The notes beneath the pieces are model-generated. The model was not told the DNA's origin, searched no databases, and worked only from the letters and a program-made list of their open reading frames with translations. A program made the position numbers and the translations under genes. This document shows, piece by piece, positions 1 to 12,920 of a DNA stretch of 20,000 nt. Within the stretch, counting starts at the first letter, position 1. Each line of letters opens with the position of its first letter. The DNA comes from an uncultured virus (IMG/VR IMGVR_UViG_2061766007_001281) (lineage: Duplodnaviria > Heunggongvirae > Uroviricota > Caudoviricetes): the IMG/VR virus record IMGVR_UViG_2061766007_001281; one strand, given 5' to 3'.

Positions 1-1463
1 GGTTACCGCCACGGCGTGATATGAACCGTATGTTCTGTAACACCTCGGCTCCGCGTGTGCCGTCAGATATGAGGTCACCTTCCCACAGCGGTTCACGTGT
101 CCGTTTCATAAACCAGTCCACGTCATAGAAGTCAAAGACCTTGTTACCTGCCGACTGGAACGACTCCTCAAAGCTGGCCGGTGCCTCATTGACCATCTGT
201 GAACGTCTGGTATAGTTCAGCTCCTCATAACGGTACCACTGTATAGCTTCCAACGGCGCACCTTCGTTCCACAGCCACCAGTAATAACGGCCGGCGCTGC
301 GCCACTTGCCTTCAGGTATCTCGTTATCACGTCCGCGATACAGCCACAGGACAAACTCCGTGAGGTCCTGTATGGGCATGGTGTCATGCGGTATGAAGTA
401 GAACGGTATAAAGAGCAGGTGGAAGTTGCTCTTACCAGCCAGCGCGTCATAACAGATGTCATGGAAGAAGTCATCCGATGTCTTGGCGGTGGATTCAAAG
501 ACCTGCATGGAGAACTTCTGCTGTTTGGGAATACCACCGCTGATGTCAGCCACAAGGTCCGCTGCGCTCTTGCCGGGCGTGTCAGGCCACACACCGACCT
601 CGGTATAATGCGCACCGCTGATACGACCTGAACGTAAGCTCTCAGGACGTTCGGCCGAACCGATATATATCACACCGGGCAGAATGACGTTACCCTGTGT
701 GTCTTTTATCTGATAGCCGTGTTTGTTACCTCCGTAATTACCCAGTTTGAGTTTGACACCATGAGGCAGTCCGAGGTCCCATGCAGGATAATCCTCAATG
801 GCTTTGTCAAGCATGTTGAGTACGTTATGTGCCGCATCCTGTACGTGGGCTGCCACCGCGAATGAGTGGTAGTTATCCCAGTGGGCCAGCAGCCAGAACT
901 GGAAGAAGATACAGAAGGTGGAACCTCCCCACTGACGTGCCTTATCCAGTACCACGTTGATAGGCTCACCCTCATATAAGAGGAACATACAGAGTTTGAG
1001 CACCTGGAGCTGCGCGTAATTGAGACGGAATCGGCCACGGCCTCCCAGTTTCTGGTCTATCTTGATACAGAACCAGCTCCAGCAGCAGAAGTCATACTTG
1101 TGACGTATGCGCCGTATCTCATCCTCAATATCCTGAAAGGTAGGTATGTCATCCGACTGCCAGCGGTGCTTGTCAATGAATTTCTGTATGCCGCCTGCAC
1201 GTAGTATGTTACGTATGAGTTTCACTTTCATCATACGTTTGGGTACGTACTGGATGGGTACGGCAAAGTCACGTATGCGCAACTGGCTGCGTTCCTCACC
1301 CAGCAGCTCCGCCAGNNNNNNNNNNNNNNNNNNNNNNNNNNNNNNNNGCATACATCTGACGGCGGCGCTCGTTCTCCGCGATGATACCGCTGACAGCAAC
1401 ACGCTCCTCCTCAGTCATGCTGATGAACGGATGGTCCTCCTCTTTCTTTTTCTTCTTTGCCAT
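1..1463 (-). CDS. terL: Phage terminase large subunit (ATPase domain; runs off the left edge)
   Basis: Manual translation; absent from the ORF track because there is no stop in the window. Begins MAKKKKKEEDHPF at ATG 1463, overlapping the upstream TGA as TGATG. Walker A LDKARQWGGST at ~917-949, Walker B AHYTEVGVW at ~588-614, coupling motif FESTA at 485-499, then NEAPASFEESFQSAG. Frame changes only across the N gap 1316-1347. Confidence 0.93.
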
Positions 1464-1918
1464 CACCGTCTCATTCTAAGGGTGGAGAAAAACAGGCCGC
1501 AGGCCAGTGACGCGATATGTGCCCAACCAGCCACACCAGGCAGAAAGACCATACCCAACGTCATGAGGTAAAAGATTATGATTGCAGGCTGCCGCCAGTA
1601 CCCTTTACGGAACACAGGTGTCATAAAACCCACACTGGCATACAAGAGGTTGCTGATTCCAACTACCGGATGGGGAGCCAGCGGCCACACGGCCATAGAT
1701 ACCAGCCAGGAGCAGAGCAGCAACCAGCCTTTATTTCGGAACCGTGGCGCGTAAAGCGCCCATACCGCAATCATGTTGACCGCGAGGTGGAAGATATTGG
1801 CATGATAGAGAGGATAAGCGGCAGCGCATAACCACGGCCAGCGGCTGTCAGTCATCCAGTCAGGGACACCTGTCAGACACAGCACGCAGCATATCACTAT
1901 AATCACTATCCTCATCAT
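1463..1918 (-). CDS. Rhomboid-family intramembrane serine protease (minimal, 151 aa)
   Basis: Hydrophobic multi-TM protein. H39-x4-H44-x3-N48 (YHANIFHLAVN) matches GlpG H145/H150/N154 spacing. GIS89NLLY93ASVG matches GlpG GLS201GVVY205ALMG. AH134IASLACG141 matches GlpG H254..G261. Confidence 0.82.
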   Translation of the reverse strand: MMRIVIIVICCVLCLTGVPDWMTDSRWPWLCAAAYPLYHANIFHLAVNMIAVWALYAPRFRNKGWLLLCSWLVSMAVWPLAPHPVVGISNLLYASVGFMTPVFRKGYWRQPAIIIFYLMTLGMVFLPGVAGWAHIASLACGLFFSTLRMRR

Positions 1919-2331
1919 CGTCTGGTCCTCATGTGTTTGATGGCGGCACGGCGCTCATAAATGATGATGTGCTTGGCACGTCCGGCAGATACGAAGAACT
2001 GGGGTGCCGGTTGCTCCACCAGCTCCTCCAGTACCAGCTCACGGCTGAGACGGCAGTGCGGGTGGGCTTTGAGGTATGCGTTATATGCGTCATACAGGTG
2101 CCATATACGCTGACGGCTGTTGCTGTTGAGGCCGATAAGTGACTGGTGGGCCATGAGACGGCCGATGAGGAGGGAGGCGGTACGTGCCGATATGTAATAC
2201 TGGGGTGCCGGCTGGCGGCGCGCGTAATCCGCTGCCTCGCCTATGCTGGCAAACCGCCTGGCACTGAGCGAGCGCACATAGACCTTGTATAAGTCACGGT
2301 CACGCTGGCGTTTGAGTTCGGTATCCTTCAC
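1915..2331 (-). CDS. Basic helical phage protein with an internal duplication; putative DNA-binding regulator or small terminase subunit
   Basis: 138 aa, GTG start, Arg-rich, repeated motif QPAPQYYIS / QPAPQFFVS. First gene of the terminase operon; overlaps the rhomboid start (ATGA). Confidence 0.6.
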   Translation of the reverse strand: MKDTELKRQRDRDLYKVYVRSLSARRFASIGEAADYARRQPAPQYYISARTASLLIGRLMAHQSLIGLNSNSRQRIWHLYDAYNAYLKAHPHCRLSRELVLEELVEQPAPQFFVSAGRAKHIIIYERRAAIKHMRTRR

Positions 2332-2355
2332 CTCTTTTTACCTGTCCTTCAACGT

Positions 2356-2384
2356 CTAAGTTACATTTTCTTGGGGCTAAGATA
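2356..2384 (-). promoter_or_regulatory. Candidate leftward promoter/operator: two TAnCTTAG boxes 21 bp apart
   Basis: Minus strand TAACTTAG (2363-2356) and TATCTTAG (2384-2377), each one mismatch from the Bacteroidota -7 consensus TAnnTTTG, 25-50 nt upstream of the GTG at 2331. Confidence 0.4.
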
Positions 2385-2409
2385 GACTACCCACCTTTCA
2401 CGGCTGCGG

Positions 2410-2417
2410 TATTTTTG
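2410..2417 (+). promoter_or_regulatory. Bacteroidota-type -7 promoter box for the scaffold/capsid operon
   Basis: TATTTTTG matches TAnnTTTG, 33 nt upstream of ATG 2451, followed by an A-rich leader without a Shine-Dalgarno site. Confidence 0.6.
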
Positions 2418-2450
2418 GTAGCAAGAAAGATAACATACAACATAAAAGCA

Positions 2451-3227
2451 ATGGCAAAAGCTGATAATGAGCAGATTAAATCCGGCAGAGAGCGTCTGCT
2501 GGAGAGAGCGCAGGGCCGTTATCCCGACCGCCACTTCGTAAGACAAGAGGGACAGGACGGACAAGACGGACAGCTGGACGACCTTGACGAAGCCATCAAT
2601 GAGATGATGGATGAGGATGCGTCACAGATTGCGACCAATGCCAGCATGAACGAGAAGCTGGCAAGTATCCTGTACCGCGATCCCAAGGTCGCTGATTTCC
2701 TTAACGTACTGATTGAGACCGGTGATCCGCGTGCCGCACTGGTGGAGACCTTCGGTGACGAGCTGGCAGAGCTGGCAACCGAGGAGGGCCGTGGGCGTTT
2801 CCAGTCACAGCTGGAGGGTTACCGTGAGCGTGTACGCAGAAGTGAGGAGCTGAAAGCCGAGGAGCAGAAGAACTGGGAGGGATTCCTGGAACGTCTGGAC
2901 AACTGGGGTAACGAGCGTAACCTGACCGATGAGGAGAAAGCGTCCATCGCAGTACGACTGATTGACATAGCACAGAAAGGCGGTGTCAACATGTATGACG
3001 AAGATGATTTCAACACCGTATGGCGTGGCGTACATTATGAGGGTGACGTAGAGGCCGCACGTAATGAGGGACTGATTGCAGGACGTAACGAGCATATTGA
3101 GGCCGCACGCCGTCAGCGTGCCGCCGCCAGCTCCGCAGGGATGCCGTCCATCAGCGGCGGTCGTGGTGCCAACATGCCGGCACCCAAAGCACCGCAGTCC
3201 AAGTCCGTATGGGATGAAGTAGAGTAA
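2451..3227 (+). CDS. Putative capsid scaffolding protein
   Basis: Acidic, coiled-coil-like 258 aa with a flexible tail ending SKSVWDEVE, immediately upstream of the capsid gene. Start moved from 2415 to ATG 2451 (after CATAAAAGCA, downstream of the promoter box). Confidence 0.6.
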   Translation: MAKADNEQIKSGRERLLERAQGRYPDRHFVRQEGQDGQDGQLDDLDEAINEMMDEDASQIATNASMNEKLASILYRDPKVADFLNVLIETGDPRAALVETFGDELAELATEEGRGRFQSQLEGYRERVRRSEELKAEEQKNWEGFLERLDNWGNERNLTDEEKASIAVRLIDIAQKGGVNMYDEDDFNTVWRGVHYEGDVEAARNEGLIAGRNEHIEAARRQRAAASSAGMPSISGGRGANMPAPKAPQSKSVWDEVE

Positions 3228-3254
3228 TACGTTAAACATTTTTTCAATAAAGCT

Positions 3255-4963
3255 ATGAAAAGACTATTTGAGAATCTTTGGGGCCACAAAATGAGTGTAC
3301 TGTCAGCTCTCCTCGTGGCCGTGGCCGTTCTGCTGGGNNNNNNNNNNNNNNNNNNNNGGTGGATCCGGTGCAGGAAGCAGCTTCACCCAATCCATCAACA
3401 GACATCAACCCTTATGACGCCAGCAGCAACCCCGGCGGCCGTCCAGCAGGTGAGGCAGCTATTCCTGACGAGCAGGGTAACAACACACAGATGCCTAACA
3501 ACCCCAGCAGCGCAACCAACCTGCGTGATGCCGGTCTGTTGGCAGAGGACTATGACGAGAAAACGGTAGAGTTCCGTAAGTTCCGTTTCCCCGAAGAGAC
3601 AATCATCGCACGTGTATGTAAGCCCGTCAAGGCAAAGGATTACGTACATAAGCACTGGGTAACCGGTTCAACCGACCTGGATGCCGTATATGGCGGTGCT
3701 GACATCTCCATCACCTATAACAGCAACAACGCAACCATCGCTATTGCCAAGAGCGCCATTGAGAACTATGAGATACTCACCGAGTACTCAGACGTAGTAG
3801 TAGAGGGTGTACGCGGTTATGCTAAGGATGACGGCGGCAATCAGATCGCAGACGGTGAGCTGACATTGTTCGTACTCAACTCCGACTATGACGGCGGCAG
3901 CAAGATTCTGTTTAAGGTTCTTAATCCTCCCACCGCCAGCGGTACCACCGTTAAGATTGAGGCTAACTGCCTGCTCCATGCTATGGCAACCGCTTGCGCT
4001 GAGTCACAGATGCACGTACAGAGTGACGCATTCATCCCTGTTGACGAGGAGTGCTACCTGCAGAAGAAGATTGAGACCGTTGTTGTCACCGACCGCTTTG
4101 AGGAGAGTGAGACCAAGATGTCTTGGAAGACACGTAACCAGCTGGCTTCCGCCAAGGAGAACTTCAAGCGTAAGTGCGCACGTTCACACTGGAACGGCCG
4201 CAAGTACCGTCATCAGGAGTTCGTCAAGGAGACCGGTGGCCGTGAGGACATCTTCCACGAGAAGGGTATCCTCCGTCAGATTCCTATGCTCTACACACAC
4301 GGAGCTGAGATGAATGACGATGACTTCCTGGCACTGACTTCACTTATGTTCACCATCAACGCCACCAACGACCATGCTTACGCATTCTGCGGTAAGAAGG
4401 AGTTGCAGCGTATCATCAAGTACGCCAACAGTTCCATCAAGCATAAGGATGTGGGTAAGGTAGAGGTTAACCGCTTCGGTATCAAGATACGTAACTATGA
4501 GGATAACTTCGGCGCATTGGAGTTCATCTGGTCACAGACACTGGATGACCTGGGTTACACCGACTTCATGGCAATCCTTGACCTGGAGAATGCCGAGCGT
4601 CCTTACCTCGTTAACGACAAGAAGACCGAGCGTGACATGAGCAAGACCGGTGAGGCACGTGAAGCTAAGGAGTACAACCTGGTACGTATTGACTGCGTGG
4701 ACCTCAAGGGCCATAACGCAGTACTGGCTTGCCCCTCAACCGTGGCTGCTACCAAGACCGCACAGCTGGGTATCATAGGTGCTACCTTCTCAGCCGTTTC
4801 TGAACTGCCTTCAGGTGACGGACACCCGACCGCAGCAGAGAAACTCCTCAAGTACTTCCTCACCGCTGATGATGACACTGCTGGATTCAAGCAGTATGAC
4901 ATTGTTGAGTGGGACAGCGACCTGAGCGCATGGAAACTCTTTGAAGGTATCGTAACCGTCTAA
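3255..4963 (+). CDS. Major capsid protein (probably HK97-like fold) with N-terminal hydrophobic leader
   Basis: Joined across N gap 3338-3357: MKRLFENLWGHKMSVLSALLVAVAVLLG...VDPVQEAASP. Capsid-like motifs YLQKKIETVVVTD, EKGILRQI and YEDNFGALEFIWSQTLD. Strong high-expression codon bias (AAC/AAG/TTC/ATC/CGT). Lies after the scaffold and before a terminator. Confidence 0.75.
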
Positions 4964-11498: not shown

Positions 11499-12920
11499 AT
11501 GAAAAGAGAAGGTCATATTTATGAGCAGATGGCCCAATGGGAGAACATCGTGGAGGCTGAGAAGGTATCTACCAGACGTAAGGCACGTAACATTGGAGTG
11601 AAACGACACGTAGCCAACCGCTGGCGTAACCTCACGGAGATACAACGACTGGTACTGGACGGAAAGATGTACACCGCAGAATACCAGCATGAGAAACGAA
11701 TCAGCGGACAGGATAAGGAGCGTGACATCGCAAAGCTCCGTTTTCATCCCTCACATATAGAACATCAGCTGCTCACTATGGCCGGAACACCGAGAGTGGA
11801 CAGGACACTGATACGGCACACATACGCGAGCCGTAAAGGATACGGACAGATTGCATGTGCAAGGTCTATCCGTAAGGTGGTACTCCGATACCGCGGACAG
11901 GAACGCTGGTATGCGCAGGGTGACATACGTAAGTACTATCACAGCATACAGCACACACTGATACGTAGTGATATGGAGCGTCTGTTCAAGGATAAGCGTT
12001 ACGTGGATGCTTTCATGGAGCCGTTCACACGTTTCGCACCTGATGGCGTGGGTATTCCGCTGGGTATCCGTCCCAGTCAGATAACAGGTAACCTGATACT
12101 GACAGGGTTTGACCATTACATGACCGAAGTGGTACATGCAGCCGATTACCGCCGTTACCTGGATGACTTCATGTTCACAGGAGCCACCAAAGGTGAGGTG
12201 AGACGTAAGATACGTATGGCGGAGGCATACCTGCAGAAGCGGTCCTTCTCACTGCATGAGCCGAAAGTAAGACGGCTCAGTGAGGGGCTGGATATGATGG
12301 GATACGTGTTCTATCCTGTACGTGACGGCATGTGGTGGAGACGTAAAGACAAGAGACGCTGGCTCAAACGGCGTGCCCATGTGCATAACCCCAAACGGCT
12401 GCGTGAACTGGATGATGCGGCGTGGGGTATGCTCAAATGGGGTAACAACCACGGACGTAGGATGTGGGAGAAGAAAACAGGCAGAGAGATAAAGATGGGA
12501 GTGAAGTATAAGAACAGCGGCATACAGAGGACGGAACGTGTGGACAGCAACGGCGTTCCGTTCATGGATGAGCCGCGTATGAGCATGCAGCCGTTACTGG
12601 GTAAGACGGTGGAGATTGACCGCTGGCTGAAAGGGGTATGTACCTCACAGGGGCCGGGCCGTTATGCGCTCCGTGTCCTGTTTATGGGTGACTGGTATAA
12701 GCTCATCGTCAACGCTGTGGAGATAAAGAACTTCCTTGATGATATGGAGAAGAACGGCGTGACACGTCTGAAAACCGTGTTCACGGATACCGGCTCACTC
12801 CATTACGCGGTGGATGAGAACCAGACGGAGATACTGGAAGTCAACGGCCGCAGGGTTATAGAGTATGAAGGTAAGGTGCTGTTTGAGGACACCAAGGAGG
12901 AAGTGGAATTCAACATTTAA
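11499..12920 (+). CDS. DGR reverse transcriptase with fused ~140-aa C-terminal domain
   Basis: Motifs HTYASRKGYG, QGDIRKYYHSI, GIPLGIRPSQ (DGR-type SQ), RYLDDF (YxDD at 12156-12167) and GLDMMGY. Lies 211 nt downstream of the TR. Confidence 0.95.
   Translation: MKREGHIYEQMAQWENIVEAEKVSTRRKARNIGVKRHVANRWRNLTEIQRLVLDGKMYTAEYQHEKRISGQDKERDIAKLRFHPSHIEHQLLTMAGTPRVDRTLIRHTYASRKGYGQIACARSIRKVVLRYRGQERWYAQGDIRKYYHSIQHTLIRSDMERLFKDKRYVDAFMEPFTRFAPDGVGIPLGIRPSQITGNLILTGFDHYMTEVVHAADYRRYLDDFMFTGATKGEVRRKIRMAEAYLQKRSFSLHEPKVRRLSEGLDMMGYVFYPVRDGMWWRRKDKRRWLKRRAHVHNPKRLRELDDAAWGMLKWGNNHGRRMWEKKTGREIKMGVKYKNSGIQRTERVDSNGVPFMDEPRMSMQPLLGKTVEIDRWLKGVCTSQGPGRYALRVLFMGDWYKLIVNAVEIKNFLDDMEKNGVTRLKTVFTDTGSLHYAVDENQTEILEVNGRRVIEYEGKVLFEDTKEEVEFNI

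Follow-up and report, generated by a model that had tools for sequence, protein, structure and literature searches.

In a stretch of 20,000 nucleotides from an uncultured virus of the Caudoviricetes (IMG/VR record IMGVR_UViG_2061766007_001281; the whole stretch is hereafter called the window), a gene for a small, probably active rhomboid protease lies close to the gene for a major capsid protein precursor that begins with a signal-peptide-like leader, and sequence comparison indicates that a very large lineage of phages has conserved this pair of capsid leader and rhomboid and passed both on vertically. When the capsid protein of the window's own group (group 1) was used as query, a rhomboid gene was found beside or near the leader-bearing capsid gene in 28 of 29 viral loci, and the 29th contig carries the rhomboid at its opposite end. 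With the rhomboid as query, 105 viral contigs were found to encode a relative and 80 loci were kept; the capsid gene is present in 56 of these 80, every time with the leader (56/56), and 24 loci are without a capsid gene. By their capsid proteins the phages fall into three groups, groups 2 and 3 being 18-21% and 30-31% identical to group 1, respectively; in group 3 about 10 kb separate the rhomboid from the capsid gene, which nevertheless has the leader.

Four genomes drawn from these three deeply diverged groups have about 11 core families in common, and the rhomboid is among them, together with the capsid protein, a scaffold-like protein, a protein of 138 amino acids (aa), the terminase, the portal, a 929-aa structural protein, a giant polyvalent protein, adaptor-like proteins, a 226-aa protein and a small protein with a Gly/Ala/Ser-rich N-terminus. 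The core families other than the rhomboid are virion or packaging genes. A hydrophobic N-terminus occurs in just two core proteins, and only the capsid leader scored as transmembrane in all four genomes. The rhomboid tree gives the same clades as the capsid tree, with the smallest possible number of changes, 6 (FastTree, midpoint roots), and the matching clades therefore argue for old vertical inheritance rather than repeated capture. A capsid profile search recovered 1017 cluster representatives in 1.84 billion proteins, the leader being found in 126 of the best 150, and such a capsid gene is present in 19 of 301 sampled Bacteroidales genomes. The labels of metagenome-assembled genomes at these loci (Bacteroidaceae, Prevotella, Cryptobacteroides, Segatella and Paramuribaculum), together with three cultured Bacteroides phages, point to Bacteroidales as the hosts. 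Two loci of Bacteroidales type, L121 and L119, were found in assemblies labelled 'Staphylococcus sp.' (on a 2.6-Mb scaffold) and 'Bacilli bacterium', respectively; these odd host labels are possibly binning or scaffolding errors.

The capsid gene, its leader and the rhomboid

In the window, the open reading frame (ORF) of the leader (3255..) and the capsid ORF, which is called from 3278, lie in different frames across a run of 20 N. The protein P0005, which is 98% identical (523/534) to the capsid core of the window, is a single protein of 571 aa whose first 28 residues are those of the visible leader, and the relatives L001 and L002 (77% identity) have one ORF of 574 aa from the homologous ATG. 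The terminase gene of the window, compared with that of L001, is likewise split by another N run. Because the relatives and P0005 keep one frame where that of the window changes, the N runs are not length-faithful; the window has 10 such runs, and its frame shifts across both of those that can be compared with relatives, in the terminase and the capsid gene. The capsid gene thus starts at ATG 3255 and not at 3278, as an earlier note on this DNA had argued, and the leader, which that note took to be in frame with the capsid core, is so in P0005 and in 120 of 120 listed homologues.

The capsid core matches the Pfam family SU10_MCP (PF17236) with E 2e-11 and 44.4 bits against a cut-off of 24.1, and its relatives match with E values down to 4.5e-45. 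Foldseek matches of the capsid model are to capsids of the HK97 fold, namely VP1 (E 9e-12), phicrAss001, P1 and SU10, with a probability of 0.97-1.00; the model is weak overall (predicted local distance difference test, pLDDT, 59.4), so that the template modelling scores (TM-scores) from Foldseek are low. In a 62-kb relative, the only Pfam capsid-family match among the 54 ORFs scanned is an SU10-type protein. Profile and structural matches therefore agree in placing 3255..4963 among the HK97-fold capsid genes, which the earlier note had called probable.

The first 28 residues of the leader are visible in the window, and the remainder was read, in frame, from relatives. In the 120 listed capsid homologues (51-93% identity) a hydrophobic leader is present in every one, and it ends in F-x-M-A in 118 and in F-A-M-A in 115. 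Among 65 unique leaders, the N-terminal flank carries a charge of +2.9 and the 20 residues that follow the leader a charge of -2.6, with an uncharged stretch of median length 19. By its sequence the leader looks like a Sec signal peptide in anatomy, with a basic N-flank, a short hydrophobic core, a small-residue site and an acidic linker behind it, and this succession of charged, hydrophobic, small and acidic residues is kept down to about 20% capsid identity and in 126 of the 150 best cluster representatives. In the capsid model of L001, pLDDT falls below 50 over residues 27-53 and 68-113, which form the linker region, and short conserved motifs lie inside the linker. Flank charges, homologues and low pLDDT thus bear out the earlier description of a basic and hydrophobic leader followed by a disordered Pro/Asn/Ser linker.

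The rhomboid of the window matches the Pfam family Rhomboid (PF01694) with E 2.9e-8 and 34.5 bits against a cut-off of 22.6, as do 5 of 5 records of relatives. Its residue 89 is Ser and its residue 134 is His, and no substitution of H39, H44, N48, G87, S89, N90 or H134 occurs among 22 phage rhomboids with 30-81% identity to that of the window. These residues occupy the rhomboid motif positions, with His/His/Asn on helix 2, G-x-S-N including Ser89 on helix 4, and His134 on helix 6. A search of PDB sequences with a profile of the rhomboid alignment gave no match at E<=1, and a fold search was therefore needed: the AlphaFold model (pLDDT 84.7) has seven helices, and its best Foldseek matches are chains of Escherichia coli GlpG (TM-score 0.64-0.75, probability 1.00). 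The best NCBIfam match of the phage rhomboids is the rhombosortase model TIGR03902, though far below its threshold of 84 bits (16.8 bits for the window and 29.2 bits for L065). On the strength of its conserved catalytic residues and GlpG-like model, the window protein is a real, minimal and probably active rhomboid, which agrees with the intact Ser89/His134 protease described before. Its loop charges, read by the positive-inside rule, predict that both ends are cytoplasmic and that the active site is periplasmic, as in GlpG.

Leaders without a phage rhomboid

The leader extends beyond the phages that carry a rhomboid, and this weighs against the phage rhomboid as the enzyme on which release of the capsid protein depends. 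Among 30 loci of distant capsid members, the rhomboid is at its usual place in 15 and none is there in the other 15. Eight unique viral capsid genes with at least 3.5 kb of upstream sequence have the leader and no rhomboid, and Pfam Rhomboid gave no match at E<=1 in any of 12 rhomboid-less records (10-78% complete, with one 93% record that is chimeric). At the locus L151 a homologue of the 138-aa protein (E 2e-6) adjoins a terminase 32% identical to that of group 1, the rhomboid slot being empty. The capsid tree places the rhomboid-less genes in two clades, both nested within rhomboid carriers, and the parsimonious reading is that the rhomboid is ancestral and has been lost at least twice. A rhomboid was found within about 10 kb in none of 80 gut metagenome loci, of which 69 have the leader. 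Ten of the 19 capsid-bearing Bacteroidales genomes, with 11 capsid loci, were also examined: a small rhomboid lies 1.5 kb upstream in 2 of the 11, and at the other 9 there is none, either elsewhere on the contig (37-406 kb) or within 180 kb. The leader is present at each of these 9 rhomboid-less prophage loci, one of their capsid genes being broken by a stop. The flank charges are alike with and without the rhomboid (+2.9/-2.6 and +3.1/-2.5, respectively); a longer hydrophobic stretch in the rhomboid-less leaders (median 26 vs 19, Mann-Whitney p=0.013), which comes from two clades and is uncorrected for relatedness, is given no weight. Since the leader is kept in rhomboid-less clades, it does not need the phage rhomboid. 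The co-occurrence of leader and rhomboid across related phages, which the earlier note put forward as a test of its idea, therefore does not hold, with the leader present and the rhomboid absent in two nested sister clades that include 9 prophage loci.

Capsid proteins that appear leaderless in databases were followed to their loci, and wherever the fetched locus shows the 5' end of the capsid gene (L161 is without it) a hydrophobic segment lies upstream in frame; such representatives may be mis-called starts or fragments. In the metagenome locus L241, the capsid gene seems to start without a leader. The record G022, at first sight a 93%-complete rhomboid-less genome, was dropped, since it contains a further head module that is unrelated to the first and includes a ClpP-like protease. 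In this 'provirus' (L173-L175) the SU10-type scaffold and capsid genes are at the ends, and a portal, the ClpP-like protease and a second capsid gene lie at about 17.5-23.8 kb, which suggests tandem prophages or a chimera. Many gut prophages (L183-L262) keep a block of the scaffold-like gene, the leader-bearing capsid gene and three downstream genes, and the usual terminase and small-protein genes were not found within 10 kb upstream of them; the head block therefore travels in more than one genome architecture.

Possible processing of the leader

As a possibility rather than an expectation, we propose that these phages assemble their heads with a membrane step, in which capsid subunits would be anchored by a Sec-type leader and freed by intramembrane proteolysis, by the phage rhomboid or, where this has been lost, by host enzymes. 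The capsid protein would be made as a membrane-targeted precursor, the leader bringing its N-terminus into the inner membrane; the basic N-flank would stay cytoplasmic, and the conserved small-residue site would reach the outer leaflet and with it the active site of a GlpG-like rhomboid. Because N-in membrane insertion is puzzling for a protein that builds heads in the cytoplasm, we suggest, following the loop model of Sec insertion, that the leader and the early acidic linker may insert as an arrested hairpin loop, and that the long, acidic and disordered linker would let the folded HK97 core remain in the cytoplasm. A cut at the site would then let the linker slide back and free the subunit for scaffold-assisted assembly. 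In the phage of the window and most others of its lineage the phage's own rhomboid, encoded in the terminase operon, would most likely cut or clear the leader, and in the clades that lost it host enzymes would cut the leader instead. We infer the membrane insertion, the cleavage, its site, the enzyme and the hairpin geometry from parts whose existence, conservation and co-inheritance are observed, and from the observed absence of another phage protease family.

Prohead proteases were scored for the S78/U35, S77 and S49/ClpP types. Pfam detected no prohead protease family in a 97%-complete relative of 62,260 bp (54 of 56 called ORFs scanned), nor was one found among 30 ORFs scanned from the loci L151, L165 and L168, and none is annotated in the cultured phage BS-TP4. 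The earlier note, which saw no conventional prohead protease between the terminase and capsid genes, is upheld in this respect by the scan of the 62-kb relative.

Processing of the capsid leader by the phage rhomboid is plausible, if rather short of an even prospect, and it is not required. It is favoured by the status of the rhomboid as a core gene in a packaging operon, by the absence of another protease family and by the residues at the putative site. In group 1 this site reads ...G-x-x-G-F-A-M-A, followed by V. The residue before the putative cut (-1, or P1) is nearly always Ala; the residue at -3 is Ala in group 1, and in group 2 it is Met, Thr, Phe, Tyr, Leu or Ile, often Met, Phe or Tyr. 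Signal peptidase I prefers small residues at -1 and -3, so Met, Phe or Tyr at -3 would suit it poorly. The recognition motif of rhomboids that Strisovsky and colleagues are said to have described in 2009 has a small P1, a hydrophobic P4 and a hydrophobic P2'. Read in this way, P1 is a constant Ala in the rhomboid-carrying phages, and at P4 groups 1 and 2 have Phe or Val, whereas part of group 3 has Gly; the constant P1 Ala, the Phe or Val at P4 and the F-x-M-A ending resemble the inhibitor Ac-FATA named in the GlpG entries 4qnz and 4qo0.

Several points, besides the distribution described above, tell against the phage rhomboid as the enzyme. P2' is mostly Asp, Ala, Ser or Gly and not hydrophobic. 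In the capsid leader the hydrophobic segment comes before the putative cut, and the flanking charges predict an N-in orientation; classical rhomboid substrates have the transmembrane helix downstream of the cut and the N-terminus outside, which is the opposite of the capsid leader, and an N-in leader with its hydrophobic segment upstream of the cut is the canonical geometry for host signal peptidase I. The group-1 site A-M-A is also compatible with this peptidase. Phages that have a separate scaffold gene, P22 for example, commonly do without a prohead protease, and here a scaffold-like gene directly precedes that of the capsid protein. Furthermore, another core protein, the small protein encoded at L128:9356-9946 (-), has a Gly/Ala/Ser-rich hydrophobic N-terminus followed by basic residues and thus the orientation of a classical rhomboid substrate. 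The proposal of the earlier note that the rhomboid releases a membrane-tethered capsid protein is thereby divided: the pair is real, conserved and co-inherited, but the leader persists without the rhomboid and its orientation is opposite to that of classical substrates.

Host signal peptidase I, or another host enzyme, may instead remove the leader in all of these phages, with the phage rhomboid acting elsewhere, a reading about level with the former and likewise short of an even prospect. The rhomboid might then cut the small Gly/Ala/Ser-rich core protein, a host membrane protein or a factor for lysis or exclusion, or it might clear away leader peptides after their removal. In favour of a host enzyme, the leader is built of n-, h- and c-regions, its residue at -1 is Ala (A-x-A in group 1), and its charge pattern is N-in; the rhomboid-less clades keep a leader ending in A-x-A-like strings. 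Bacteroidales hosts would have signal peptidase, the host genomes carry rhomboids of their own, and both signal peptidase I and GlpG-like rhomboids have their active sites on the outer side of the membrane. The alternative core protein, moreover, is oriented as a classical substrate. However, signal peptidase I acts on exported proteins, and the capsid protein must stay cytoplasmic, and many group-2 leaders have Met, Phe or Tyr at -3. The alternative substrate also occurs in the rhomboid-less L151 (homologue at L151:5886-6491), its homologues being found with and without the phage rhomboid, so that it explains the distribution of the rhomboid no better; nor did the comparison of genomes and loci find any protein family that occurs only with the rhomboid.

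It is improbable that the leader is left uncleaved or is not inserted into the membrane, serving as a hydrophobic element of procapsid assembly, as a helper like the delta domain acting with the scaffold, or as a part retained in the virion. HK97-type capsid proteins often carry N-terminal assembly domains, and the short motifs conserved in the linker would fit such a function. The conserved pattern of basic, hydrophobic, small and acidic residues is however a membrane-targeting signature and not that of a coiled-coil scaffold domain, and a separate scaffold-like gene is already present.

Still less probable are two starts giving two products, in which the first ATG would lead to an exported or membrane form and the Met at the end of the leader to the cytoplasmic capsid subunit, a parallel to the hepatitis B precore/core arrangement. 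In all 45 unique genes from the three groups, and in 118 of 120 close homologues, the last residues of the leader are Met-Ala. Many of the phages' genes begin with Met-Ala as well, and some database proteins are called from exactly this internal Met. On the other hand, the context upstream of the internal ATG is G+C-rich (in the 45 unique genes, A+T is 0.39 upstream of the conserved internal Met and 0.76 upstream of the first ATG). Met-Ala is missing after the hydrophobic core in 45 of 126 leader-bearing representatives, several of which have Phe, Leu, Val, Thr or Cys before Ala, and rhomboid-less prophages have Leu, Ile or Ala at the Met position. These sequence features make it unlikely that translation starts at the conserved internal Met. 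Finally, that the leader is separate from the capsid gene, its apparent connection being an artefact, is almost certainly wrong: the two parts do lie in different frames across the 20-N run, but the 98%-identical protein and all relatives have one frame, and the terminase gene is broken alike by another N run.

Gene neighbourhood and known systems

Three minus-strand genes overlap head to tail in the window, namely those of the 138-aa protein, the 151-aa rhomboid and the terminase-like protein, the last of which leaves the window; the acidic scaffold-like gene and the capsid gene follow each other on the plus strand, divergently from the rhomboid operon, and structural genes and a reverse transcriptase lie further downstream.

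Table 1. Positions of the head and packaging features in the window
Feature	Position	Strand	Basis or remark
Large terminase gene, N-terminal two thirds, exits window	2..1463	-	ORFs 1296..1466 and 2..1402; frame broken by N run
Phage rhomboid, 151 aa, six predicted helices, Ser89/His134 dyad	1463..1918	-	Pfam, conservation, model
138-aa protein, phrog_27246 (E 4.2e-13)	1915..2331	-	Core family in 4/4 genomes
Acidic 258-aa scaffold-like protein, phrog_22323 (E 7.8e-23)	2451..3227	+	Core family; directly upstream of capsid gene
Major capsid protein precursor, SU10/DUF5309-type HK97 fold: leader, linker and core	3255..4963	+	
Signal-peptide-like leader: basic n-region and hydrophobic h-region	3255..3358	+	c-region with small-residue site inside N run
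Acidic Pro/Asn/Ser-rich disordered linker, from leader to capsid core	3359..3520	+	Sequence; low pLDDT in L001 homologue

The rhomboid stop TGA (1465-1463) overlaps the ATG (1463-1461) that opens the N-terminal piece of the terminase gene, and the gene overlap behind the translational coupling noted earlier is thus confirmed, with modest evidence for the identity of the partner as a terminase. This identity is suggested by a match of a full-length relative to phrog_24361 'terminase' (E 6.9e-9) and by the collinearity of the two terminase ORFs of the window with a single ORF of 709+ aa in L001; no Pfam family matched the gene in the window or the relative. The ORF of the 138-aa protein overlaps the rhomboid start by 4 nucleotides, and in the genomes that represent the three phage groups this gene immediately precedes that of the rhomboid. 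The protein is possibly a DNA binder like a small terminase. Much the same '...Q-x-A-P-x-Y-Y-I-S...' element recurs in both of its halves, each of which aligns with the L151 counterpart of the other, and by sequence the protein appears to be an internal duplication. The 258-aa protein is called scaffold-like from its position and composition. The reverse transcriptase (11499-12917, +; Pfam RVT_1, E 2.5e-10) lies among tail or structural genes and, by analogy, probably belongs to a diversity-generating retroelement; such an element is reported in passages of the isolation paper of the cultured relative BS-TP4 (PMC12694917). In a relative of the window, L127:4953-20000 and L128:1-7842 encode one polyvalent protein of 7630 aa with LPD38, polyvalent-protein kinase, RadC-like JAB, SNF2 helicase and ParB-like domains, and all three phage groups have homologues of this protein (5391-5772 aa) as part of the core.

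With E. coli GlpG and Providencia AarA (MEROPS S54, PF01694), the phage rhomboid shares the six-helix core, the Ser in G-x-S-x on helix 4, the His on helix 6 and the His/Asn on helix 2, but it is only 151 aa long, has a much shorter first loop, and is encoded by a phage in a packaging operon. AarA, which removes a short N-terminal piece from TatA, sets the precedent of a rhomboid dedicated to trimming a single partner; the proposed capsid substrate, N-in and with its hydrophobic segment upstream of the site, is the reverse of the TatA type. Rhombosortase and GlyGly-CTERM (TIGR03902) likewise pair a small rhomboid with a Gly-rich motif, a hydrophobic segment and a basic cluster, whereas the capsid signal is N-terminal, as a mirror image of GlyGly-CTERM, and its cargo is a cytoplasmic capsid protein. 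In HK97 the delta domain of gp5 is cut by gp4, and in T4 the propeptide of gp23 by gp21, both being soluble propeptides cut by soluble prohead proteases inside the shell. The HK97-fold capsid protein of the window also has an N-terminal piece, here presumably removed before or during head maturation, but this piece resembles a Sec signal peptide and no prohead protease family was found by Pfam. SU10-type capsids (PF17236, formerly DUF5309; PDB 7z45 and others) belong to the same family and fold, from which the window protein appears to differ by an extra N-terminal leader and acidic linker of about 100 residues.

The cultured temperate Bacteroides phages BS-TP4, BKO1-TP3 and BF1-TP2 (PQ571277, PQ571269 and PQ571263) are relatives of group 2, with capsids only about 20% identical to those of the window's group. 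BS-TP4 and BF1-TP2 have the same gene order, with the small protein, the rhomboid and the terminase, and divergently the scaffold-like gene and the leader-bearing capsid gene, and GenBank annotates the rhomboid in both; BKO1-TP3 is related by its capsid protein match only. Neither the window DNA nor its capsid protein had a match in the cultured-phage collection, where only capsid queries from group 2 and the outgroup reached these three phages. The words 'rhomboid', 'signal peptide' and 'mass spectrometry' do not occur in the passages searched of the paper on their isolation (Gut Microbes 2025, PMC12694917). The only paper found to name DUF5309 (PMC9548881) does no more than include a protein of this kind in a list of outer-membrane proteins predicted for Liberibacter crescens. 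Our literature search found no paper on a phage-encoded rhomboid paired with a capsid protein, nor on a signal peptide on a Bacteroides phage capsid protein.

Capsid proteins of the HK97 fold are regarded as soluble and cytoplasmic, and as matured by soluble proteases or by none. If a capsid protein is targeted to the membrane, one has to ask at which place the heads are assembled, what keeps the protein from being exported and which enzyme takes the leader off. With sister clades that naturally have no rhomboid, and with three Bacteroides phages in culture, the matter can be put directly to experiment. For the rhomboid family, a place among the vertically inherited core genes of a phage packaging operon would mean a new function and, if the membrane step proposed here is true, the phage enzyme would be the first intramembrane protease in the virion morphogenesis of tailed phages.

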